Assembly (NCBI RefSeq): GCF_057098645.1
Contig: NZ_CM169472.1
Length of the DNA: 64,000 nt
Reading direction: 5' to 3' (one strand)
Position numbers and translations under genes: made by a program
The notes under the pieces: generated by a model
What the model was told of the DNA's origin: nothing
Databases searched by the model: none
Seen by the model: the letters and a program-made list of their open reading frames with translations, nothing else
Shown: positions 49,383 to 64,000 of the stretch, in pieces
Layout: each line of letters starts with the position of its first letter
Position numbering within the stretch: the first letter of the stretch is position 1

Positions 49383-49796
49383 TTATACAGGCCAGTTGAT
49401 GGATCGATTGTTATTAATGATATCTTCATGAGTCGGTGTCTCACCCAGCTTACCGAAGCTGGCATAAAGTGAAGGCAGACGGGCCCGTCCTTCTCCCTTT
49501 TTCGCCAGAGGGAAAGCGCGAAGCATGGCGGCAGCCTCCCAGTCACAACAATAGGATGGTGTGCACGGCTGCTGACGCCATGATTCAGCGATAGAGCCTG
49601 AAAATACGGGGTCAAAGCCGGTATCATTAACCAGAGTCATCGTGACCTGTACTGCGGCTGGATGATCTCCTGCTACTGCAACTGCTAGGCGACCGCGGCT
49701 CCCTTCAGGTAGTCTATTGTGGTCAACTAAAACTGGCCTCCGCGTTAGAGTTTTTCCAGTATCGGTTTTCTGATTCGTTTGGTGGTAACCCACCAT
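49383..49796 (-). pseudogene. 3' remnant of a gene truncated by the IS629-like insertion (possibly NAD(P)-binding reductase-like)
   Basis: Minus-strand ORF whose N-terminal portion runs into the IS left end at 49797; only about 138 C-terminal codons lie outside the IS. Confidence 0.4.
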
Positions 49797-49850
49797 TGAA
49801 CCGCCCCGGGAATCCTGGAGACTAAACTTCCTGAGAAAGAGGTAAACAGG

Positions 49851-50177
49851 ATGACTAAAAATACTCGTTTTTCCCCTGAAGTCCGTCAACGGGCAGTCCG
49901 TATGGTTCTGGAAAGTCAGGGCGAATATGACTCACAATGGGCGACAATTTGTTCCATTGCTCCAAAGATTGGCTGTACGCCGGAGACTCTGCGTGTCTGG
50001 GTTCGCCAGCATGAGCGGGATACCGGGGGCGGTGATGGAGGGCTCACCACCGCTGAACGTCAGCGTCTGAAAGAGCTGGAGCGTGAAAATCGTGAACTGC
50101 GCCGCAGTAACGATATCCTTCGCCAGGCTTCCGCTTATTTTGCGAAGGCGGAGTTCGACCGCCTCTGGAAAAAATGA
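49851..50177 (+). CDS. IS3-family transposase OrfA
   Basis: 108 aa, [35 protein letters not shown]... Confidence 0.85.
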
Positions 50178-51064
50178 TGCCACTGCTGGATAAGCTGCGT
50201 GAGCAGTACGGGGTCGGACCGCTATGCAGCGAACTGCATATTGCCCCGTCAACGTATTACCACTGTCAGCAACAGCGACATCATCCGGATAAACGCAGTG
50301 CCCGTGCGCAGCGCGATGACTGGCTGAAGAAAGAGATACAGCGCGTATACGATGAAAATCACAAGGTATACGGTGTGCGTAAAGTCTGGCGTCAGTTGTT
50401 ACGGGAAGGTATCAGAGTGGCCAGATGCACTGTGGCACGTCTCATGGCGGTTATGGGACTTGCCGGTGTTCTCCGGGGTAAAAAGGTCCGTACGACCATC
50501 AGCCGGAAAGCCGTTGCCGCAGGCGACCGCGTAAACCGTCAGTTCGTGGCAGAACGACCTGACCAGCTGTGGGTGGCTGATTTTACTTACGTCAGCACAT
50601 GGCAGGGCTTCGTCTATGTGGCGTTCATCATTGATGTGTTTGCCGGATACATTGTGGGGTGGCGGGTCTCATCGTCCATGGAGACGACATTCGTGCTGGA
50701 TGCACTGGAGCAGGCGTTATGGGCCCGTCGACCGTCCGGCACGGTCCATCACAGTGATAAAGGTTCTCAGTATGTATCGCTGGCCTACACACAGCGGCTT
50801 AAGGAAGCCGGATTACTGGCATCAACAGGAAGTACAGGCGACTCGTATGACAACGCGATGGCGGAGAGCATCAATGGTCTTTACAAAGCGGAGGTAATAC
50901 ACCGTAAGAGCTGGAAAAACCGTGCAGAAGTGGAACTGGCCACACTCACGTGGGTGGACTGGTATAACAATCGACGATTGCTGGAAAGGCTGGGCCATAC
51001 TCCTCCGGCAGAAGCAGAAAAAGCTTATTATGCTTCCATCGGAAACGATGATCTGGCAGCCTGA
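50174..51064 (+). CDS. IS3-family transposase OrfB
   Basis: 296 aa, DDE domain. Confidence 0.85.
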
Positions 51065-51106
51065 GTTCACAGATAAAACACTCTCCAGGAAACCCGGGGC
51101 GGTTCA

Positions 51107-52391
51107 TTTTTTCCTGACGCTTGCCGAGTCCGGAGAACGAAAAACCGCAGTGGACAAATTATTAATGAAGCCCCTGTACCAGCAGGAGATGCAGTTATAT
51201 TCCAGATACAAAAGTGAACTGGCTGTCTGGAAAAACAAGGAAGAGCTTTTAAAGGCTCAGAAAAAAGCATTGTTGTCAAAACTGAATAAAGAACTCCGCA
51301 AAGGCGCGGATGAGTCAGAAACCCTCAGACAACTGGAAGTACTTCAGAAAAACAGTGCGGAAGAACCTGTGAGGTATAAATTCATTTTTAATGATGCCAC
51401 GACTGCGGCAATTAAGAATCAGCTTTGTGGTAAATGGCGTTCAGTGGGTATTATGTCAGATGAAGCCGGTATTATATTTGATGGATATACCCTGTCTGAG
51501 TTGCCTTTTATTAACAAAATGTGGGATGGCTCTGTATTGTCTGTGGACAGAAAGAATGAACCCGAACAGATGATTGAAAATGCCAGAATGACGTTATCCC
51601 TCATGGTGCAACCAGGTCTTTTTGACCGATATATGGAGCGAAAAGGTTCTGTTGCCAGGGACAGTGGTTTTCTTGCCCGTTGTCTTATCAGTAAACCTGC
51701 AACCACGCAGGGGAAACGCTTTATTAACGGAGCTGTGATTCCGGGAGGATCATTAACGGCATTTCATGAACGATTAATGGAACTGGCCAGAGGCAGTATT
51801 GAAAAATCCAGTGAGGATGAACGGTATTGTCTGCATTTTTCGCCTGAAGCGCAAAAAATATTTATTGAGCACTATAATGTTCTGGAGCAGGATTTATCCC
51901 CTTCCGGACCCTTAAGCCCGTTTCGGGGACATGTTTCAAAAAAAACAGAAAACATTGCAAGAATTGCAGCGTTATTTCAGTATTTCAGCTATGGTGAAGG
52001 GAAAATCTCTGCCGATATCATGACGTCTGCTGTCGTAATAAGTTCGTGGTACACAGATGAATATAAAAAATTATTTGCGTTACCTGATGAATCTGAACTG
52101 CAGCAGAAGGACGCCGAGGAGCTGTTCGACTGGCTCATTGAGGAGTGCCGCGGAGAATGCCCGCCCCGTGTCAGGAAAAATTATATTCTCCAGTGTGGCC
52201 CGGGCTGGTTCAGAAACAGGAAAAAACTGAACGCATTGCTGAACATTCTTGAATCTCAGTTCAGGCTTTCTGTCGTGCCGGAAGGAAAAACCATGTATGT
52301 TCTGCTTCCCCAGATAGCCAGTTTAAAGTTGTCTGATGTCTCTGGTATTTTTACCTCGGGTTATCACTACAATAAGCTGAGAGCGAAGTAA
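51107..52391 (+). pseudogene. DUF3987/YfjI-like protein (P4-like island gene), 5'-truncated by the IS insertion
   Basis: The long ORF 50922-52391 begins inside the IS and has no start of its own downstream of the IS end; roughly 428 codons resemble the YfjI/DUF3987 family as I recall it. Confidence 0.5.
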
Positions 52392-52450
52392 CCGGTGAGC
52401 AGTTTTTCTCCATTATGCTTCAGACTTAGATGATTGATTATTATGGGGAT

Positions 52451-52490
52451 TTCATCACCGATATTCAGATGTATGAATATCGGTGATGAA
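52451..52490. promoter_or_regulatory. Perfect 17-bp inverted repeat with 6-bp spacer (operator- or terminator-like)
   Basis: ttcatcaccgatattca-gatgta-tgaatatcggtgatgaa, read directly from the sequence, between the DUF3987 remnant and the convergent hypothetical gene. Confidence 0.5.
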
Positions 52491-52712
52491 CTAAAGCTCA
52501 GGAGCTGCGTGGTGGTGATGAATCAACAGGCATATAACTGATACCCGCCGGTCAGAAGTTCCAGCCTGCGACTTTCCTGTCTGCGTGCCCGCAGTCCGGC
52601 GTTCAGGTGCAGCGTGTGACAGAACGCACGGAGAGCGAAACGGCAGGCAGACAGGCCGTTCAGTCAGCCCTGGCACCCTGCCCGGATACCAGCTTCCCTG
52701 AAACAACTGGCA

Positions 52713-53321
52713 TCAGGTGCGCTTATCGTCAACCGTTGTGCGGTATGCCAGGAGCACGTACTGATCCATCAGATCCGTCAGTGCTGCGCTCTGCTTCTGA
52801 CGGTTGATGATCCATTCCTCCAGCTCTTTTTCTGATTTCCGTTTCAGATTCTCCGTCCAGTCGTCAAGGCAGTTTCCGGTCATTAAATCAAGCCAGCAAA
52901 GCCAGACCAGTTTGAGGCGCAACTCCGTGCCACCAAACTGACGGAAGAGGCTGATCAGTTTATTTGCCAGCGAACGCTGCCTCAGACGTTCACATTCAGA
53001 CAGGAGAATGCCTTCCAGCATCGGATGATGAACCAGCAGATGTTCACTGGTGCATAAATTCACTATCAGATCATCATCCAGGGGCGGCGTGGTCCGTTTG
53101 TCCGGACCATAAATCAGCCGGTGCAGACTCTGGGGTACGATGGCAATCTCCGGTTTTTCACCATTGAATGACACCCACCCGGGCGTCAGATTATGGAAGT
53201 AGTAGATATTCGGATGACACACGCCCCAGGATACGGCGTGCCGGGTGAAGCCGGTCAGCCATTTCTGGTAGCTTTCGTGGAGCAGCTCGTAACGGGTCTG
53301 ATACTGTGGTTTCATTTTCAT
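52713..53321 (-). CDS. Hypothetical protein (P4-like island), downstream of the alpA-like gene
   Basis: ORF 52713-53462; probable start at MKMKPQYQTRYELL (ATG 53321, preceded by a GAGGA Shine-Dalgarno); no family recognised. Confidence 0.5.
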   Translation of the reverse strand: MKMKPQYQTRYELLHESYQKWLTGFTRHAVSWGVCHPNIYYFHNLTPGWVSFNGEKPEIAIVPQSLHRLIYGPDKRTTPPLDDDLIVNLCTSEHLLVHHPMLEGILLSECERLRQRSLANKLISLFRQFGGTELRLKLVWLCWLDLMTGNCLDDWTENLKRKSEKELEEWIINRQKQSAALTDLMDQYVLLAYRTTVDDKRT

Positions 53322-53608: not shown

Positions 53609-54255
53609 GAGAATGTTCCTCCGGATGTTGTTAAACCAGCCGGTGTGGTCATGAAAACAACGCACCACCTTCACCGGCATAACAACCGGGGAGAAACGTA
53701 AAAAATAATCGGGAATGTGACCGCCAGGAGATAAACGGGGAGGTTACGGTGGCTGAGCCGTACCGGTATGCCGGGTGGTTGTTACGAAACGATGCTTCCG
53801 CACGCGCGCGCGATAAAGAAGGGATGATTTTCGTGAGGAAGAGGGGAAAACTGGCGTTCTGATAATTGCAGAGTTATTTACGGGGCGGTTACGATGGGGC
53901 AGACCGTGTCCGGTGGGCAGGCGACAGGTATCACCGATGGGATAAGACTGTCTGATTGGTATTATAAATATATAAGAGAGAGCAAACACATGAGATCAAA
54001 TACATGAGTTCATATATGTGAAATAAACACGGTGAGTGTGATCAGTGGGCATGTGCAAAATGGCATCTGAATCGATCGCAGTTTGGCATTCGAATCGATC
54101 ATGATTTGGCATCCATCTCCGATCACAGTTTGGCATCACAATCGATCACGATTTGGCATGCTTCCGATCATTGATTGGCATCCTGCCAGTCACTCCGGGA
54201 ATTAACTCTTTTCACCACAGTCTCCATTGCCGTGTTTAAACCAGTGGAGACGTCA

Positions 54256-55821
54256 ATGTCCAGAAAGAGAAAATCCAGGAGCACTATGGAAACCTGTTTT
54301 AAGATCCTTCAGCTCAAGTTCGACAAGAAGCTGACTAACCGTTGTATCGGACTGACGTTACACATCAGCGCCTCAACCGTTTTTGAGGTTCTTGCCCGCT
54401 TCAAAGCCTCTTCTCTGTCATGGCCATTACCTGCTGATATATCCCATGACACGCTGGAGAAACTCATTTTTCCGCCCAAAGACACCTTTGCATCAGAGCT
54501 TGTAATGCCTGACATGTTGTACTTCGATACGGAAATGAGAAAACCAGGTGTGACGCGGCAACTGTTGTGGATGGAATACAAGGCACAGGCGGGTAACAAA
54601 GCGATGGGATACTCGCACTTCTGCCGTTGCTACCGGGAGTGGAAAAAAACGCGACGTCTCTCCATGCGCCAGGAGCATCGTGCCGGCGAAAAGCTTTTTA
54701 TCGACTTCTGTGGTCCTACGGTTCCTGTTATTAATCCGGACACCGGTGAGATACGCCGCGTGGCAATCTTCGTGGCCGTAATGGGGGCGTCCAACTATAC
54801 CTACGTTGAAGCGTGCGAAGGTCAGGACATGATGTCATGGTTAAATGCCCACAGCCGTTGCCTGACCTTCCTGGGCGGCGTACCGAAGCTGCTCATCCCC
54901 GATAACCTCAGAAGCGCAGTGAAAAAGGCCGATCGATATGAGCCTGTCATCAACGACAGTTATCAGGCACTGGCTGAGCACTATGGCACGGTTATCATCC
55001 CGGCCCGACCACGCAAACCTAAAGATAAACCAAAAGCAGAAAACGGCGTCCTCATCGTTGAACGATGGCTTCTTGCCCGCATCCGTAATGAAACCTTCCA
55101 CACGCTCAGGGCGCTGAATGCGCGCCTTAGGGAGTTACTGACAGACATGAATAACCGGCCAATGAAGGGGTACGGCAATCAAACCCGTGCAGAACGCTTC
55201 CGCATACTGGATGCGCCAGCACTCTCTCCGCTGCCTCTGGCACCTTATGAATACACGGAATACAAAGCTGTGAAGGTTGGCCCTGACTACCACGTTGAAT
55301 ATGCCCGTCACTGGTACTCCGTTCCACACGAACTGGTCGGTCAGCGTCTGTCACTGAAGGCGGGGCAGTCGGTGGTACAGCTCTGGCACAAGGGGCAGTG
55401 TGTGGCGCAACATCCGCGCAGCACACATGAATATAAACACACAACCAATCCGCTTCACATGCCAGAGCGCCACCGGCAGCACGGGACATGGACACCGGAA
55501 CGCCTGATCGAGCAGGGAAAACGTACGGGCCCGTCCACAGGCCGGGTGGTTGAATCCATGCTGAAGGCAAAACCCCATCCGGAACTGGCTTATCGTGCAG
55601 TTCTGGGGCTGCTGGCACTTCAGAAAAAATACGGCCCGGAACGGCTGGAAAAGGCCTGTTACGTTGCCCTGCACTATAACGCCCCTGACAGACGCTTTAT
55701 CGACAATCTGCTGCGTCACCATCGGGAGAACCTGGAGCTTCCATTATCCCGCCAGGGCGAACAACATCCGGCATATGCTTCAGAGCATGAAAACCTGCGT
55801 GGTCCGGGCTACTACCACTGA
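54256..55821 (+). CDS. istA: IS21-family transposase IstA
   Basis: 521 aa from MSRKRKSRSTMETCFKILQLKFDKKL...; HTH plus DDE domain. Confidence 0.8.
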   Translation: MSRKRKSRSTMETCFKILQLKFDKKLTNRCIGLTLHISASTVFEVLARFKASSLSWPLPADISHDTLEKLIFPPKDTFASELVMPDMLYFDTEMRKPGVTRQLLWMEYKAQAGNKAMGYSHFCRCYREWKKTRRLSMRQEHRAGEKLFIDFCGPTVPVINPDTGEIRRVAIFVAVMGASNYTYVEACEGQDMMSWLNAHSRCLTFLGGVPKLLIPDNLRSAVKKADRYEPVINDSYQALAEHYGTVIIPARPRKPKDKPKAENGVLIVERWLLARIRNETFHTLRALNARLRELLTDMNNRPMKGYGNQTRAERFRILDAPALSPLPLAPYEYTEYKAVKVGPDYHVEYARHWYSVPHELVGQRLSLKAGQSVVQLWHKGQCVAQHPRSTHEYKHTTNPLHMPERHRQHGTWTPERLIEQGKRTGPSTGRVVESMLKAKPHPELAYRAVLGLLALQKKYGPERLEKACYVALHYNAPDRRFIDNLLRHHRENLELPLSRQGEQHPAYASEHENLRGPGYYH

Positions 55822-55837
55822 CAGAAGGAACAACAGT

Positions 55838-56593
55838 ATGAGTGATAACCTGTTAAACAAACTGACCCAACTGAAACTCCCGGCGATGGCCGGGAGCCTG
55901 ATACGGCAGCGGGAAACGCCTCAGACCTACGACGAACTGTCGTTCGAGGAAAGGCTGACGCTGCTGGTTGATGACGAGCTTCTGAGCAGGGAAAACAGCC
56001 GTGTGGCACGGTTGAGAAAAAATGCCGGCCTGAAATACCAGGCAACACCGGAAGGGCTGCGCTATCCGGCCTCAAGAGGTCTGCGGGCTGAACAGATGAG
56101 AGAACTGCTGAACGGCCACTACATAACCCACAGGAAAAACCTGCTGATAACCGGTCCGACAGGATGTGGCAAGAGCTGGATAGCCAATGCGCTGGGCGAA
56201 CAGGCATGTCGACAGAAACACAGCGTCCGGTACTGTAGAACCGGGCGATTACTGGAACAACTGGCTCAGGGACGTGTTGATGGCAGCTGGCTGAAATATC
56301 TGAAACAGTTGCAAAAAATACAGGTTCTAATCCTGGACGATCTGGGGCTGGAACAGTTAAGTAACGCCCAGTGTAATGACCTTCTGGAGCTCATAGAGGA
56401 TCGTTACGGACAAAGCAGCACGATAGTGGTAAGCCAGTTCCCGGTAGATAAATGGCATGGTCTGATGGAGAACCCAACAACAGCAGATGCCATCCTGGAC
56501 AGACTGGTACATAACTCACACCGAGTGGTCCTTCAGGGAGAGTCACTGAGGAAAAATCCCCCGGTAGTGGAAAGCAGCGAAAAAACGCGTTAA
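55838..56593 (+). CDS. istB: IS21-family helper ATPase IstB
   Basis: MSDNLLNKLTQLKLPAMAG...; Walker A GPTGCGKS; AAA+ IstB-like. Confidence 0.85.
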   Translation: MSDNLLNKLTQLKLPAMAGSLIRQRETPQTYDELSFEERLTLLVDDELLSRENSRVARLRKNAGLKYQATPEGLRYPASRGLRAEQMRELLNGHYITHRKNLLITGPTGCGKSWIANALGEQACRQKHSVRYCRTGRLLEQLAQGRVDGSWLKYLKQLQKIQVLILDDLGLEQLSNAQCNDLLELIEDRYGQSSTIVVSQFPVDKWHGLMENPTTADAILDRLVHNSHRVVLQGESLRKNPPVVESSEKTR

Positions 56594-57568
56594 AAAGCGG
56601 TAGAAAAAGTTAAGTTCCCGGTTGATCGAATGGATGCGAATCGCTGATCGGACTTCGATGCCAATCCGTGATCGAATAGAGCGGAATACGCAGGCATGAT
56701 GAGAACGCAGTAGCAACAGACTGCGCTATCCCTGATAGCTGGCGTATAACCTGCGTATATAAAACGTACCAGCAACGCACGTGAACAGAGTGCATTAAGC
56801 ATCCGTCGTTGACACCGACCTGGTGAGTGACAGTCTGAGAGACCGGTTAAGTGGTGGTACGGGAGTAATGAGTTTGGGGAGGGTACCAGAATGTCAGTCT
56901 GGTACGGTATGCTGACAGTATCACGTTAATTGCAGCATAAAGTGATGAGAGGCTAATGGAAGTTAAAACCAGAGCAGTTCCGTCGTTGTTCATCCCGGGA
57001 GACACTGGAAAAAGTGATTTCCCACACGCGTTATAAGCTTACTCTAGCGGAGATGGAAGCCTTCAACTCTGCGGTCGATCACCGACTGGCAGAACTGACA
57101 ATGAACAAGCTTTACGATCGTGTTCCCGCTTCAGTCTGGAAATATGTCATCTGAGCGTTCGGTAATCACAACTGCATCGCGCCAGGTGTTATCCGCTTTG
57201 TGATTCTTATTGGCTCTTCTCAGGTTATTAAAAGCTGAATATGTTCCTGTTGTCGGGAACCAGGATAATACCGGGAACGTTAAGCGGTATAGCGACAACA
57301 AAGAATTCGAAATCAAAAGGGAATGGTGCCGGAGGCGTGGGCGGTAATGGGCTGATTTTCAGGTATTACCGGCTTACAGCGTGTGGTTGATATTGAGGGG
57401 CTGTGAGTTTCACGTATTTGTCAGAAACCCAGACGAGTTTTCCTGTATGAGACGAAATAAGGCAGCGGCAATACATGGAAAAATTTAATATGCTATGAAG
57501 GAGAACCTGTCGGTTACGCTTAATATAACCGGTACACTGTCAGCTCAGGGGATACATGAACCGTTATC

Positions 57569-57772
57569 TCACCAGCTACACAGTATATACACACTGACGC
57601 TGACAGTAGTCAGCAGGACCACAATAATCAGTGCCAGCAGTATGGTAACGATACGGTCTGTATTCCGGTAATAGCCGAAGGGGTCGACAGAACCACAATA
57701 CGGGCAACACACAGTATTATGAGTAATCGCGTTTCCACAGTCCCAGCACTTCTTTTTGCGTATCACCATCAC
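57569..57772 (-). CDS. Small zinc-ribbon membrane protein (hypothetical)
   Basis: 67 aa; CWDCG...CPYCG zinc ribbon followed by one hydrophobic helix (IVTILLALIIVVLLTTVSVSVYIL). Confidence 0.4.
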   Translation of the reverse strand: MMVIRKKKCWDCGNAITHNTVCCPYCGSVDPFGYYRNTDRIVTILLALIIVVLLTTVSVSVYILCSW

Positions 57773-57973
57773 TCCCTCCTCACAGCCTTACCCGTAACCG
57801 GTTTTTTACATTAAAAAAACAACGCTGAAAATTCAACCGTCAGTCCGGAGACGACCGTTCGGGTTATCTCAGAGTGCCTGAGATATTGCCTGGTTGGAGA
57901 TCACTTCAGGGACTCTGCGCATTTTTTACGGCGTGGTTAATCCGTATGAACGAAACCATACGGAGATTTAACC

Positions 57974-58543
57974 ATGACCTACAAATACAACCCCTTCTGG
58001 CAGCAACGTATTCGTGAGACGGTGCGGCACGCACTGGATGTTCATCCCCGCCTGACGGCATTGCGGGTTGATCTGCGTCTCCCGGATGTACCGGCAGCAA
58101 CGGACGCGGCTGTGATATCCCGCTTCATCAATGCCCTGAAAGCCCGAATCGACGCTTACCAGAAACGTAAGCATCGGGAAGGTAAACGCGTGCATTCCTC
58201 GACCCTGCATTACGCCTGGGCCCGGGAGTTCGGGGAGCTTAAAGGCAAAAAACACTATCACCTGCTGCTGCTGGTCAACCGGGATACCTGGTGTCGTGCC
58301 GGCGATTACCGCGCTCCGGGGTCACTGGCCGGAATGATTAAACAGGCCTGGTGCAGTGCCCTGGGGGTGGATGCCGGATGTTATGCCACGCTGGTGCATT
58401 TTCCGGTCAGGCCGGCGGTGTGGCTGGAACGCGATGATGAAACCGGCTTTCAGCAGGTACTGGAACGTGCTGGCTATCTGGCGAAGGAGCATACCAAAGC
58501 TCGCGGCACCGGTGAGCGCAACTTTGGCTGTAGCCGGAGTTGA
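57974..58543 (+). CDS. YagK/YfjJ (inovirus Gp2-like) family protein
   Basis: 189 aa; N-terminal MTYKYNPFWQQRIRETVRHALDVHPRLTALRVDLRLP resembles the YagK/YfjJ family found in CP4-type islands (from memory); Shine-Dalgarno present. Confidence 0.5.
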   Translation: MTYKYNPFWQQRIRETVRHALDVHPRLTALRVDLRLPDVPAATDAAVISRFINALKARIDAYQKRKHREGKRVHSSTLHYAWAREFGELKGKKHYHLLLLVNRDTWCRAGDYRAPGSLAGMIKQAWCSALGVDAGCYATLVHFPVRPAVWLERDDETGFQQVLERAGYLAKEHTKARGTGERNFGCSRS

Positions 58544-58795
58544 ACACGACAGACGCGCCAATACCCGGCAAACCAAAAGTATGGGTTGTTGTCTGGTGGC
58601 AACGATGTATCCACTCGCCCACTGACTGTTTTTTACGTCAGTGTTCCATTGTGTGACAACCACAATGCTGTAACAGCAACCAGCCTGCTTTACCCAAACT
58701 CCAGTCCAGATTTTAACTGAACCGCCATTCACACCTGACCACGCTGCCCGTACCGGGACGGCTGTTGCCTGCGTGTCGTCTGGCGGCTGAGGAAT

Positions 58796-59203
58796 ATGAC
58801 TATGTACGCAAAATCCTTTCTCGCACTTGATGGCAACGGGCGTCTGACGGGTGCCCGTACCGCACAGACTGCACCTTACGATCGCTACACTTGCCACCTT
58901 TGCGGCAGTGCACTCAGATACCACCCGCAATACGACACTGAGCGTCCCTGGTTTGAACACACTGACGACGGGCTGACAGCGCACGGTCAGCAGTGTCCTT
59001 ATGTCAGACCGGAACGCAGGGAGATACGCTTGATTAAGCGTCTGCAGCAATTCGTACCGGATGCCTTACCCGTGGTGCGTAAAGCCAGCTGGCACTGCAG
59101 ACAATGTCACCACGATTATTATGGGGAGCAGTACTGCACAAACTGCCAGACCGGAGGATTCAGTATTCCCCGGACAACTCGGGAGGAAATATGCGAATTC
59201 TGA
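58796..59203 (+). CDS. Cys-rich putative zinc-binding protein, paralog A
   Basis: 135 aa; CHLCG...PWFEH and WHCRQCHHDYYGEQYCTNCQTGG motifs; GAGGA Shine-Dalgarno. Confidence 0.55.
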   Translation: MTMYAKSFLALDGNGRLTGARTAQTAPYDRYTCHLCGSALRYHPQYDTERPWFEHTDDGLTAHGQQCPYVRPERREIRLIKRLQQFVPDALPVVRKASWHCRQCHHDYYGEQYCTNCQTGGFSIPRTTREEICEF

Positions 59204-59625
59204 ACTGTTATATGGCGAATGACAGCAAGGGGCATTTTGTTACGGCGAAAGAAGCAGCGAAGCACAACCGCCGGGACGTTTTGTGCTGTGTGTCCTGTGG
59301 ATGCCCGTTAACACTTCAGCGGGGCAATGACGGACAACAACCGTGGTTTGAACATGACCAGATGACTGTCGCTGAGAAAATCCTGCTGCGATGCACCTGG
59401 CTTGACCCGGCAGAGAAAGAGGCCCGTCGTTTGCATCTGCAGGGTATGACAGTTCTGGATTATACGGTGAAGGTGAGAAAGTGGTTTTGTGTGATGTGTG
59501 ACGAAGATTATGAAGGAGAAAAGTGCTGCCCGCGTTGTGGTACCGGGGTATACAGCAGGGCGTGGGGGCGGCAGGATGTGCCGTCGGAAGATGCCAGGGC
59601 TGATAATCCGTTACAGAGGTTGTAA
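59191..59625 (+). CDS. Cys-rich putative zinc-binding protein, paralog B (translationally coupled to A)
   Basis: 144 aa from ATG 59191 (GGGAGG Shine-Dalgarno); shares CxxCG...PWFEH and W.C..C.(D/H)DY.GE..C..C.TG motifs with paralog A; 13-nt overlap with A. Confidence 0.55.
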   Translation: MRILNCYMANDSKGHFVTAKEAAKHNRRDVLCCVSCGCPLTLQRGNDGQQPWFEHDQMTVAEKILLRCTWLDPAEKEARRLHLQGMTVLDYTVKVRKWFCVMCDEDYEGEKCCPRCGTGVYSRAWGRQDVPSEDARADNPLQRL

Positions 59626-61012
59626 TGGTTGCCTCTGGCGCAGTTTGCGGTGATGCCGTTCCCGGGAATGGATTGCCAGTGCGGGGACTGTGGAGCTTAA
59701 TTCCGGTGTTGGTGGCCTTTCCGTTGATTTTGAGCCAACAGCCCTCCTGTGACTGACAGGCTGCCTCGTCATTCCATACGTATCTTCAGGTGAACAGATG
59801 CATGTCTGAGCGTACTCACGCAGCCGGCCCGGCAACCGCGGTGGTACTACGCTGGCTGCGAGAAAATACAGAAAGCACCAGAATACGCTCTCCTGTTGCT
59901 GATCAATCAGGATCTCATGCACCTACCGGGATCTAGGGCTAGAACTGATGAAACCGATTCGCACCTGGCTGAGTTAATGCTACAGGCCAGGGCATCACTA
60001 CCCCCTGACGAGCACTGTACTGTGGTATGCAGTTACAGGGGGCGTGTGCAGCCACACCTGAAAGCAGTGAGTCGTTCACGGCATTCAAAAACACGTGCCT
60101 TTCGTTCGCCGTTCCTGTGATGGCCGGCATCATTTGCTAAGCCGTTACCGACGTTATTCCCTCCGGGACACGCCTCTGGTTGAGGCTTTGCCCGGAGCAA
60201 TCGAATGAAAATAAGTTAAGTCACCGAAAGGGAGGATGTAGTCAACCGGGGGAACAGTAATAAGCCGTCGTGCTTTTATCGTACAAGTGTGTTGCGTTTT
60301 GCACCGAAAATACGATAGAGGTCGTTTATGGATTCCGCAGGGAGTGCTGATTATTATTCACTGGCAGCAGACAGCGATGTGTGTGCAGGCATTCAGGGGG
60401 ATGTTGTCAGCAGAAGGGTGCGTATAGCAGATTGTTGTTATACATGGCGTATGAAGTATTACCAGTCATGCGGAGTAGTGTGGTGAGGGGCTGTATGAGA
60501 AATCGCCACCTTCTTGTCAGAGAGGGAACGCTACCATGAAAGTCAAAAGCGATAACGCAGACCGGTACGATCGGTAGGTAAAACTGTAGCGGTGTGCTGC
60601 CGCCGAGGTCAGAATAATCTGCGCGTTTTTACGCCAGCGCCACCGACGAACAGCAGGAGATTGAGGGGAATTTGGCGGCGATAAAGACGTAGAAGAGAAA
60701 AACGGGCAATTTGCCGCATGCCCACAGAATCAGTGAGATCGTTAGCGACAGCAAAATGATCGGCAGCCAGCGGCGGCCTGCAATATCGGGATGAAGGAGA
60801 TCCTACGATATCGATGCTGCACCTGATATGTACGATCAGTAAATAGAGTACGAAACAGCAAACACGACGATAATAACGCTGGCAGCGGTGCCTGTCAGGC
60901 AAACGCCCACACGCAATAAAATAAATCAACCATCGCAGGGCCGTGATCATCCGCATACACCGCTGATGACGCGTCTAAAAACGCGTCAATATGACTTCCC
61001 CGGAACATTACC

Positions 61013-62254
61013 TCATTTCAGGGTATGGAGAATTTTTAACATCGAGTTATCTATGGTCTGTTTGACTTTTTCGTAATAGATCGGTTCAGATAATGACGAA
61101 TCCCAGGTATGAATATCGTTCTTATTAAAAGGAATGCATTTCATGGCTACTGCCTTTAACTGTTTCCCTTTTTGCTCATACTCATTGATATCATTAATGG
61201 TAAATTTCAAACTCTCTTTTCTTGCTTCTGTTATTTCAGTTGGGCATACCAGCTTTATATCTCCTAAGGTAAATGTACTGACCCCGGTGATGAAAAATCT
61301 CTCGGGGATTTCTGTATAGTGCCGAGTATTCCAGATTAAGCCATTAAACATACTATGAGAATGAGTTTTATTTTCGATATAATACTGATGCGTTCTCCAG
61401 TCACTAATGCCTGAGAGACTCATTACCATATTAATGATCATATTTGGGATAGGGCGATACCACATACTGAATACAGTAATTACAACTGGTATGCATATTA
61501 AAACAACTATGAATCCAGTGAATTTATCACCATTTCTGCGCTCATTAAGATGTATGGCACCAGGCAGAATGCCAATAGTAACAATAGCTGCTGTTAAGGC
61601 AAGGAGCATTAGCATTTCAACCAAATCACTTGTCTCCTCACTAAAATCAAGTTGGGTAAGCAGAAATAACATAGGTAATATTTGAACGATCCCGGGAGTC
61701 ATAAATTGCAAGGGTAAAAAACATAACAATCCTGGTTTTCTTGGTAATTTCTCATAGTTATCAGATTTATGCCAACTAAATCTCTTTGTTTTAAATAGAT
61801 TAAAATAGGATACAAAATAACTAAAAGCAAGCATCAATACAAAACCGGTGATACTTATGGAATAACCATTCCATCCATAAAGATAGTAAATATAGTAGCC
61901 AACAATTATACTACAGCATATAAACAAGCTATTTAGATAACAAACAGTGGAAATTCGATGTGGTATGCTTGGATAATTTTTGAAATTATCTTCATGTAAT
62001 GTGTAAATGAGGATTAGAATAAAAGAGGAAATGAAAATTACTAAGCTAAACCCAGAAAACGATACTATTATAAAAACAAAAATGATACCTATGGCTGAAC
62101 TGAGGCTTACAGTATCAAAGAAAATATCTAATCTATCTATGTTTGACAGATAGAACCATATAACAGCCATTGTGCATCCAGTAATAAATGTAGATGAGGT
62201 TATTACTGAAATAATGAATTTTTTATTCAACAGCTTTATGACAGATTTATTCAT
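61013..62254 (-). CDS. AT-rich polytopic membrane protein with C-terminal soluble domain (unknown function)
   Basis: 413 aa; multiple predicted transmembrane helices in the N-terminal roughly 270 aa, hydrophilic C-terminus; codon usage and base composition visibly AT-rich compared with flanking DNA. Confidence 0.6.
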   Translation of the reverse strand: MNKSVIKLLNKKFIISVITSSTFITGCTMAVIWFYLSNIDRLDIFFDTVSLSSAIGIIFVFIIVSFSGFSLVIFISSFILILIYTLHEDNFKNYPSIPHRISTVCYLNSLFICCSIIVGYYIYYLYGWNGYSISITGFVLMLAFSYFVSYFNLFKTKRFSWHKSDNYEKLPRKPGLLCFLPLQFMTPGIVQILPMLFLLTQLDFSEETSDLVEMLMLLALTAAIVTIGILPGAIHLNERRNGDKFTGFIVVLICIPVVITVFSMWYRPIPNMIINMVMSLSGISDWRTHQYYIENKTHSHSMFNGLIWNTRHYTEIPERFFITGVSTFTLGDIKLVCPTEITEARKESLKFTINDINEYEQKGKQLKAVAMKCIPFNKNDIHTWDSSLSEPIYYEKVKQTIDNSMLKILHTLK

Positions 62255-62884
62255 AATCCGAATTCCATACCTGATAAAATTCGTATTGTAGTGAGGACCG
62301 ATTTTTTGAGCAACTTATAACCATCGCTTAAAGCTACTTGCTACCATACATGCCGTTATCCCGAACCATAAAGCGCTTGGCAGTAACACCAACATCACAG
62401 ACAGATACTGCGGTTGCGCCAAATAAAAGAATGGCGGATAAGGTCGGCGGATTGCAACGTGATGCTGTGCTGTAGGATGACTTCTGCGGTCTCGTCCAGC
62501 GCCAGCCACTCCTGGCGGATTTTGTGTGGGGGCATGGTGTGTTCCTTTTTGTGTTGTTGGTTGCGTATAGTGCTTGTTGATGATGAAAACCGGTGTGAGA
62601 TATTTTTGCCAAAACAACTAACACTGATCAGTGTAGGTAACGAGCTTTTCAGACATAATATGGTGATGATTTACACTGGAAAAACAGGACGTAACACTGA
62701 ATAGCTCTGGAGACGATTTGCTTGAAGTGGCGTGCTATTTGTTGAAAGAAGAATTTCTGATGATACCTTATTTTAAAGGAGGCTAAAGGGAGAGGAGAGA
62801 GCCCTGTTGAAATCAACAGGACTTAATAGCTCCTCTCCGAAGGGCAAGGAGATCACCCGTGCGCCTGGTTAGGTGAAGAAGTAC

Positions 62885-64000
62885 TCAGCGTGGTTGCAGA
62901 CAGTTATCTTCTTTCCAGCCGTACAGCCACTCCATGCCGCGATAAAACTCTGCCTGCGATTTCCCTTTCCACAGCAGGTTACGAACCTGGCGTTCTACTC
63001 CCGCGGCGTGATAAACCCGTCCCATCTCACGGGTCGACCAGACAATACGCGCGGTGCGCGGAATACGTACCGACTCATACAGCGCAAAGGCTTGCGCCGC
63101 ATCACCCTCACACTGCGCCAGCGCCTTACCCAGCGTTACCGCGTCTTCCAGCGCCATACAGGCACCTTGCGCCATATATTGCGCCACTGGATGGGCTGCA
63201 TCGCCCACCAGCGTAATGCGGTTAGTGCCCCATTTCGCGACTGGTTCACGGTCGGCAGTTGACCAGCGTCGCCATGAAGTCGGTTTATCCAGCATCTGGC
63301 GCGGACGCGGGTGAATCCCCTCAAAGTAAGAGAGCACTTCCTCTTTACTGCCATCCTTCACGCCCCACTCTTCCTGCTGGCGGCTGTGGAATGTCACCAC
63401 CAGGTTATACTGCGTGCCGCCGCGCAAAGGGTAATGCACCAGGTGACAGTGCGGCCCCGCCCACAGTACCGGTGCGTTAATGCGCAAATCTTCCGGCATA
63501 TCGGCACAATCGATAACCGCACGGTAGACAACATGTCCGGTGACACGCGGCGCATCGCCCAATAAGCTCTGGCGCACCACTGACTTCACGCCGTCACAGC
63601 CAATCAGAATATCGCCGGTCCAGCTATTGCCGCGATCGTCAAACACGGTGACATCGTCTTCCGTCTCGCGAATATCCACGACGTTGGTGGAGGTGTGATA
63701 TTCCACGTCCGGATGCGTCAGTACCGCTTCCCACACCGAGGCGTGAATATCAACCCGGTGGATCACCGCGTAAGGACCGCCGAAATGGTCACGAAAGGCC
63801 TGCCCGGTTTCAATGCGCACCACTTCTTCGGCGTTCACCGCATCCATCATGGTAATGTGATCGGTAAACACCGCGCGCTGGCGGGCAACTTCGCCGACGC
63901 CGAGGCTGTCCAGCGCCGAAAACGCATTTGGCCCCAACTGGATGCCCGCGCCAATCTCACCGATCTCATGCGCCTTTTCCAGCAGCACCACTTTGATCCC
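62885..64000 (-). CDS. FAD-dependent aromatic-ring monooxygenase (salicylate/3-hydroxybenzoate hydroxylase-like), N-terminus beyond window end
   Basis: ORF runs to the window edge; ...VLLEKAHEIGEIGAGIQLGPNAFSALDSLGV... and C-terminal GDAAHPVAQYMAQGACMALEDA motifs typical of group A flavin monooxygenases. Confidence 0.7.
   Translation of the reverse strand, partial: GIKVVLLEKAHEIGEIGAGIQLGPNAFSALDSLGVGEVARQRAVFTDHITMMDAVNAEEVVRIETGQAFRDHFGGPYAVIHRVDIHASVWEAVLTHPDVEYHTSTNVVDIRETEDDVTVFDDRGNSWTGDILIGCDGVKSVVRQSLLGDAPRVTGHVVYRAVIDCADMPEDLRINAPVLWAGPHCHLVHYPLRGGTQYNLVVTFHSRQQEEWGVKDGSKEEVLSYFEGIHPRPRQMLDKPTSWRRWSTADREPVAKWGTNRITLVGDAAHPVAQYMAQGACMALEDAVTLGKALAQCEGDAAQAFALYESVRIPRTARIVWSTREMGRVYHAAGVERQVRNLLWKGKSQAEFYRGMEWLYGWKEDNCLQPR

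Follow-up and report, generated by a model that had tools for sequence, protein, structure and literature searches.

The catabolism of 3-hydroxybenzoate through gentisate has been understood for decades from work on Klebsiella and Salmonella. In Klebsiella "pneumoniae" M5a1, this route is assigned to the mhbR-mhbTDHIM cluster (Jones & Cooper 1990; Liu et al. 2005; Lin et al. 2010, as cited in PMC3572157 and PMC5472690), of which the products MhbM, MhbD, MhbH and MhbI are 397, 345, 232 and 214 amino acids long, respectively (PMC3572157). As related in PMC3572157 from Robson et al. 1996, Klebsiella DNA enabled E. coli K-12 to grow on 3-hydroxybenzoate. In Klebsiella MhbM, residue Arg169 is essential, according to the citation of Liu et al. 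2005 in PMC5472690. Strain M5a1, the source of the characterised cluster, is a close relative of K. michiganensis (PMC5723360), and the orthologue of K. michiganensis DSM 25444 served as the stand-in for M5a1 in our comparison of MhbM. On the structural side, the same enzyme family is represented by 3-hydroxybenzoate 6-hydroxylase (3HB6H) of Rhodococcus jostii RHA1 (PDB 4bjy, 4bk1; Montersino et al.), in which the His213-Tyr217 pair takes part in substrate binding and activation and in catalysis (PMC5472690). In this enzyme a phospholipid is bound in a tunnel at the dimer interface, and the residues in contact with the lipid are not always kept among orthologues (PMC5472690). For E. coli itself, a crystal structure (PDB 2d40) and assays of the gentisate 1,2-dioxygenase of strain O157:H7 have been published (Adams et al. 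2006, as cited in PMC4585797), and a study of the bovine rumen lists GtdA with the O157 proteins that it identified (PMC9135228). In the portions of the literature that our searches covered, this dioxygenase was the only E. coli component with biochemistry to turn up (PMC4585797), and we found there no enzyme assay or growth test on E. coli MhbM.

The DNA analysed here, referred to as the window, is a stretch of 64,000 nucleotides from contig NZ_CM169472.1 of RefSeq assembly GCF_057098645.1. At its far edge, an open reading frame on the minus strand enters at position 64000 and continues to a TGA stop at 62885-62887, with 371 sense codons and no internal stop. The translation of this frame is the same as residues 27-397 of the 397-residue RefSeq protein WP_000170152.1 with zero mismatches. 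The frame is confirmed as real and its coordinates as exact, and the strength of its matches is far beyond chance. Only the first 26 codons (MTKVTRAVIVGGGIGGAATALSLARL) lie outside the window. Plus-strand frames within 62885-64000, for example 62873-63262, are shadow frames. We are highly confident that 62885-64000 is the 3-hydroxybenzoate 6-hydroxylase gene mhbM, the last gene of an mhbT-mhbD(gtdA)-mhbH-mhbI(maiA)-mhbM operon that is carried as cargo of a pheV island. As mhbM is encoded on the minus strand, what the window contains is its 3' 93%, and thus the 3' end of the last gene of the operon. The gene and the elements within it on which this reading draws are the following:

62885-64000, minus strand: mhbM, the 3-hydroxybenzoate 6-hydroxylase gene by our highly probable assignment; codons 27-397 and the stop, with the 5' 78 nt beyond the window edge.
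63581-63598, minus strand: CDGVKS, codons 161-166, the "DG" FAD/NAD(P)H motif of group A flavoprotein monooxygenases as defined in the legend of Fig. 5 of PMC5472690.
63572-63574, minus strand: the codon of Arg169; in a gap-free 397-residue alignment, the E. coli protein and its K. michiganensis orthologue share Arg at this position.
63431-63445, minus strand: HLVHY, codons 212-216, whose first and last residues, His212 and Tyr216, correspond in the alignment to the pair His213/Tyr217 of R. jostii 3HB6H.
63188-63208, minus strand: VGDAAHP, codons 291-297, the "GD" FAD-binding motif (PMC5472690).

The operon context can be read from genomes that are nearly identical at this place. The last 7.3 kb of the window (56693-64000) are 99.9% identical to E. 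coli O145 RM9872 and 99.4% identical to E. coli O145:H28 RM13516, and in both of these genomes the genes next to mhbM on its strand are, in this order, maiA, a gene of the FAH family, gtdA and mhbT, beyond which lie a divergent LysR gene and then remnants of insertion sequences (IS). The product of maiA (mhbI) matched TIGR01262 at 309 bits (cutoff 171), and that of gtdA matched TIGR02272 at 603 bits (cutoff 442) as well as the E. coli O157:H7 gentisate 1,2-dioxygenase structure 2d40 (E = 2.9e-236). The FAH-family gene, mhbH, encodes a hydrolase of 233 amino acids and of the fumarylpyruvate-hydrolase type, and mhbT encodes an aromatic-acid:H+ symporter that bears the RefSeq name MhbT. The MhbT, FAH and LysR proteins scored under the cutoffs of their nearest NCBIfam equivalogs, and their names come from synteny and RefSeq annotation. 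Judged by this arrangement, the adjoining genes in the near-identical genomes are an mhbR-mhbTDHIM cluster of the Klebsiella type: the gene order, the orientation and the divergent LysR regulator are identical, and the proteins of the E. coli cluster are equal in length to those listed for Klebsiella in PMC3572157 or a few residues off. The same gene order was also found in Klebsiella, Citrobacter, Salmonella enterica subsp. diarizonae, Serratia, Raoultella, Kluyvera, Trabulsiella and others, with MhbM protein identities of 88-94% in those genera. What differs from the Klebsiella cluster is the setting, which here is an E. coli host and a pheV island bounded by IS rather than a stable chromosomal site. 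An earlier note on this DNA, which gave exactly the coordinates 62885-64000 and left out the strand, had suspected an aromatic catabolic cluster past the window edge and had named a ring-cleavage dioxygenase, a transporter and a regulator as the genes to look for. All three are present as gtdA, mhbT and the LysR gene in the genomes of 99.4-99.9% identity, from which we infer that the operon continues past 64000 in the source genome as well.

Considering that the island is mosaic and rich in IS, that the 5' end of the gene lies outside the window, and that one related copy (locus L028, described below) has a 1388-bp deletion within the operon, the locus might be thought a dead remnant, in which mhbM is truncated or disrupted, or the operon is broken by IS, and no catabolic function is left in this strain. 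However, the 371 visible codons are intact and encode the same residues as the full-length RefSeq protein, and the annotation of the nearest relatives shows six intact genes. In addition, among 5426 complete E. coli genomes, the six-gene module was present in 614, and at least 80% of it was covered in 611 of these. We consider decay of this kind very improbable.

In terms of enzyme identity, the fragment matched the NCBIfam equivalog NF006021, "3-hydroxybenzoate 6-monooxygenase" (EC 1.14.13.24), at 716.2 bits (E = 1e-215, model positions 28-397 of 398), and thus cleared the curated cutoff of 459 bits despite the 26 missing residues. The next NCBIfam family reached 222 bits against its own cutoff of 524, and all others were far under their own cutoffs. 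The fragment also matched the Pfam family FAD_binding_3 (PF01494) at E = 3e-18. The first reading of the gene, as a flavoprotein resembling salicylate or 3-hydroxybenzoate hydroxylases, was right and can now be stated more exactly as the 3-hydroxybenzoate 6-hydroxylase equivalog. The closest solved structure is R. jostii 3HB6H (4bjy), which was matched at E = 2.5e-78 over residues 5-393 (389 residues). The identity to this enzyme is only 39%, but the residues and motifs Tyr105, His213, Tyr217, Gln301, GxGxxG, DG and GD of the Rhodococcus enzyme are shared. Of these, Tyr105 and Gln301, which align with Tyr103 and Gln300 of MhbM, have roles assigned through the variant structures 4bk2 and 4bk3. 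All three FAD fingerprints are present; the GxGxxG dinucleotide-binding motif, GGGIGG at residues 11-16, falls in the 26 codons past the window edge and was read from the identical RefSeq protein of locus L001 (O145 RM9872) only. Toward Klebsiella the likeness is much closer: the K. michiganensis DSM 25444 orthologue is 90.7% identical to E. coli MhbM without a gap over 397 amino acids, which is also the length of M5a1 MhbM, and Arg169 and the His-Tyr pair are kept.

That the gene encodes a salicylate hydroxylase, either a decarboxylating salicylate 1-monooxygenase that yields catechol or a salicylate 5-hydroxylase that feeds gentisate, is extremely improbable, for although the enzymes belong to one superfamily, the salicylate hydroxylase structures 6bz5 and 5evy were matched at E = 1e-31 to 1e-33, and 4bjy was deposited under the name "probable salicylate monooxygenase", the match to TIGR03219 (salicylate_mono; E = 1.5e-35) stays at 122.7 bits against a cutoff of 446.35 while the 3HB6H equivalog gives 716 against 459, the His-Tyr pair specific to 3HB6H is conserved in MhbM, the synteny is with the gentisate pathway and not the catechol pathway, and the orthologue from the Klebsiella lineage, the source of the characterised mhb genes, is 91% identical.

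Based on the match to the 3HB6H equivalog, the solved enzyme, the Klebsiella orthologue and the operon context, we infer that 3-hydroxybenzoate is converted to gentisate. Given the 91% identity to the Klebsiella-lineage orthologue and the genes of the operon, E. coli MhbM would carry out this conversion with NADH and O2. The substrate and the chemistry of the whole pathway are proposed here by analogy with the equivalog models, the Klebsiella and Rhodococcus enzymes and the O157:H7 dioxygenase structure. In this scheme, MhbT would import 3-hydroxybenzoate (chemistry summarised in PMC3572157), and MhbM, as an NADH- and FAD-dependent group A flavoprotein monooxygenase, would hydroxylate it with O2 at C6, para to the hydroxyl, to give gentisate (2,5-dihydroxybenzoate). 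The gentisate 1,2-dioxygenase (GtdA/MhbD) would then cleave the ring to maleylpyruvate, the glutathione-dependent isomerase (MaiA/MhbI) would convert this to fumarylpyruvate, and the FAH-family hydrolase (MhbH) would split fumarylpyruvate into fumarate and pyruvate. The operon mhbT-mhbD(gtdA)-mhbH-mhbI(maiA)-mhbM would be transcribed toward lower window coordinates, under the control of MhbR, the divergent LysR-type regulator, and the module of about 6.1 kb would be cargo on a genomic island integrated at pheV. The site of integration is the only tRNA gene in the window:

38585-38660, plus strand: tRNA-Phe (GAA), pheV, the integration site of the island, assigned by the flanking yqgA/speC genes and by alignment.

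The assignment of this tRNA gene as pheV follows from the flanking yqgA and speC genes and from the 99.9% identity of window positions 27001-49552 to the yggM...speC-yqgA-pheV-integrase-fecIRABCDE locus of E. coli O145:H28 RM13516. The gene mhbM lies about 24 kb into the island, on the downstream side of both pheV and a P4-type integrase, and this DNA is absent from K-12; the attR end of the island lies past the window edge. Accordingly, the earlier note was correct in placing the locus in the pheV neighbourhood and in regarding the hydroxylase gene as foreign to that neighbourhood in K-12, where the whole cluster is absent. It had also named a core position in E. coli as a finding that would speak against its view; the cluster was found in 611-614 of the 5426 genomes, and the module is accessory, not core, in E. 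coli.

Compared with the pheV island of RM13516, the window has two extra segments (49553-53140 and 54054-56692), in which there are, among other things, an IS3-family element at 49797-51106 and a match to the YfjI-family-protein region of RM9872. By alignment, the island in the window is a further mosaic variant without a full-length counterpart among the complete genomes of the collection, of which the best covered 80% of positions 39001-64000.

The module is found in several genomic settings. Among the 624 places at which it was located in the 5426 complete genomes, 26 were on plasmids, and the junction typical of the island (window 61900-62900) was found in 87 genomes, always on the chromosome. 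In the two non-island chromosomal carriers that were inspected, the cluster was located between dusC and yohJ. The cluster is thus not specific to the pheV island. In RM13516, as in the window, it lies in the pheV island, and in some O145:H28 strains (RM9872 and RM13514) it lies inside a region tabulated as OI-122 at pheV/pheU (PMC9144400, Table 3), about 10 kb from nleE, nleB and espL2 (L001 15286-30479 in RM9872) and with the same left-hand neighbours. The two placements, pheV on the one hand and an OI-122-type island at pheV/pheU on the other hand, imply that modules have been exchanged between islands at the two tRNA-Phe sites.

A plasmid copy was also seen: the 224-kb plasmid pOkiPb01715_1 (L004 1844-13020), from E. 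coli of bovine faeces, has the whole mhb module bracketed by IS1414 and IS91/IS3 remnants, about 5 kb from the heat-stable enterotoxin gene sta1. In PLSDB, 13 Escherichia plasmid records matched the gene, the best of them being a record of 4.9 Mb.

The boundaries of the module become visible when the island copy is compared with the copy at the dusC-yohJ site, and they leave a short stretch downstream of mhbM inside the module:

62832-62884, no strand: 53 nt 3' of the mhbM stop, still within the module of about 6.1 kb common to the dusC-yohJ copy, as shown by alignment.

In K-12 MG1655, dusC directly adjoins yohJ and the cluster is missing from this site, and in O157:H7 EC4115 and GPEC657 the module lies exactly between these two genes with no mobile elements nearby. 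Relative to K-12, the O157 insertion measures 6185 bp and stands in place of 123 bp. Of this insertion, 6119 bp are present in the island copy as well, and the right ends of the shared module and of the insertion are no more than 3 bp apart; in window coordinates, the homology with the O157:H7 copy stops at 62832. The module alignment (L001 15233-21349 with L003 7001-13118) has 96.8% identity, so that the O157:H7 dusC-yohJ copy comprises the same six genes at this DNA identity over 6119 bp, and its MhbM protein is 99% identical. The difference between the two copies is in their surroundings. Whereas the O157:H7 copy sits between the core genes dusC and yohJ without mobile elements, the window copy is about 24 kb inside the pheV island, beside a low-GC orphan gene and insertion sequences. 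No direct or inverted terminal repeats bound the 6.1-kb module in the O157 copy. We also considered whether the module is a self-mobile element, and we saw no evidence of this, as the repeat search around the O157 copy gave short chance matches only.

At the nucleotide level, mhbM of the window shares 95-96% identity with the other E. coli copies that were compared, 92% with that of strain E69 and 90% with that of E. albertii, and its identity to the genes of other genera (Klebsiella, Citrobacter, Trabulsiella) is about 82-85%. From these identities by lineage, we consider that the island copy is a module of the Escherichia lineage that has moved within the genus. A recent import from Klebsiella or Citrobacter was rejected on the same values. 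It is also conceivable, though we hold it doubtful, that the Escherichia-type module, with 95-97% DNA identity between its copies compared with about 84% to other genera, acts as a portable cassette across the four settings in which it was seen, the dusC-yohJ site, pheV islands, OI-122-like islands at pheU and large plasmids, and that it serves as a niche-fitness factor for plant phenolics. In this case, ruminant- and plant-associated E. coli (O157, O145, ETEC) would use breakdown products of plant phenolics, such as 3-hydroxybenzoate and gentisate, in the gut or rumen, and the module would travel together with virulence cargo (nleB, nleE and espL2; sta1).

The gene, the operon and the pathway are already annotated, and the pathway is experimentally established in close relatives. 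What our analysis adds is descriptive and only mildly new. The pheV island, which is known for cargo of iron uptake (fec), adhesin and effector genes, also carries a complete aromatic-acid catabolic module in the near-identical genomes, and this module is absent from the main text of a 2024 paper on the evolution of GI-pheV (PMC11537424). The other addition is that the module occurs in several mobile contexts beside virulence genes. Its relocation among a core chromosomal site, the pheV/pheU islands and plasmids could bear on the life of STEC and ETEC on plant phenolics in cattle.

Several observations concern the DNA that adjoins mhbM in the island. Between the IS-rich part and a low-GC frame, three small genes lie on the plus strand at 57974-59625, and in RefSeq these are an inovirus Gp2 family protein and two zinc-ribbon proteins. 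The low-GC frame, at 61013-62254 on the minus strand, adjoins mhbM; it has 413 codons, corresponds to a 385-amino-acid "hypothetical protein" in RefSeq, has 32.9% GC compared with 51.7% for the whole window, and has a hydrophobic, multi-pass look. A part of it is inside the junction probe 61900-62900 that is common to 87 of the 5426 genomes. PADLOC gave no match for the Gp2-like frame, the two zinc-ribbon frames or the 413-amino-acid frame. Between this frame and mhbM lies an intergenic stretch of about 315 nt (62431-62746); in unrelated E. coli genomes (H101-H105), sequence about 90% identical to it flanks an HNH endonuclease gene. The stretch is overlapped by a RefSeq frame of about 46-47 amino acids on the minus strand (62394-62534), and neither this frame nor the low-GC frame had a Pfam match. 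An Rfam scan of 59500-64000, which includes 62431-62746, returned nothing at E <= 0.1. A terminator and promoter scan of 62200-64000 gave no convincing intrinsic terminator after mhbM, with counts no higher than in shuffled sequence. Finally, a contig labelled as a metagenome-assembled genome of Collinsella (L028 1074-9065; JAIJJM010000061.1, "MAG: Collinsella sp.") is 99.7% identical to window positions 60425-64000 and to the E. coli island, and is almost certainly misbinned E. coli DNA. Owing to its deletion, mhbH is gone entirely, maiA lacks its 3' part and gtdA its 3' end, and the contig represents a decayed copy of the operon.
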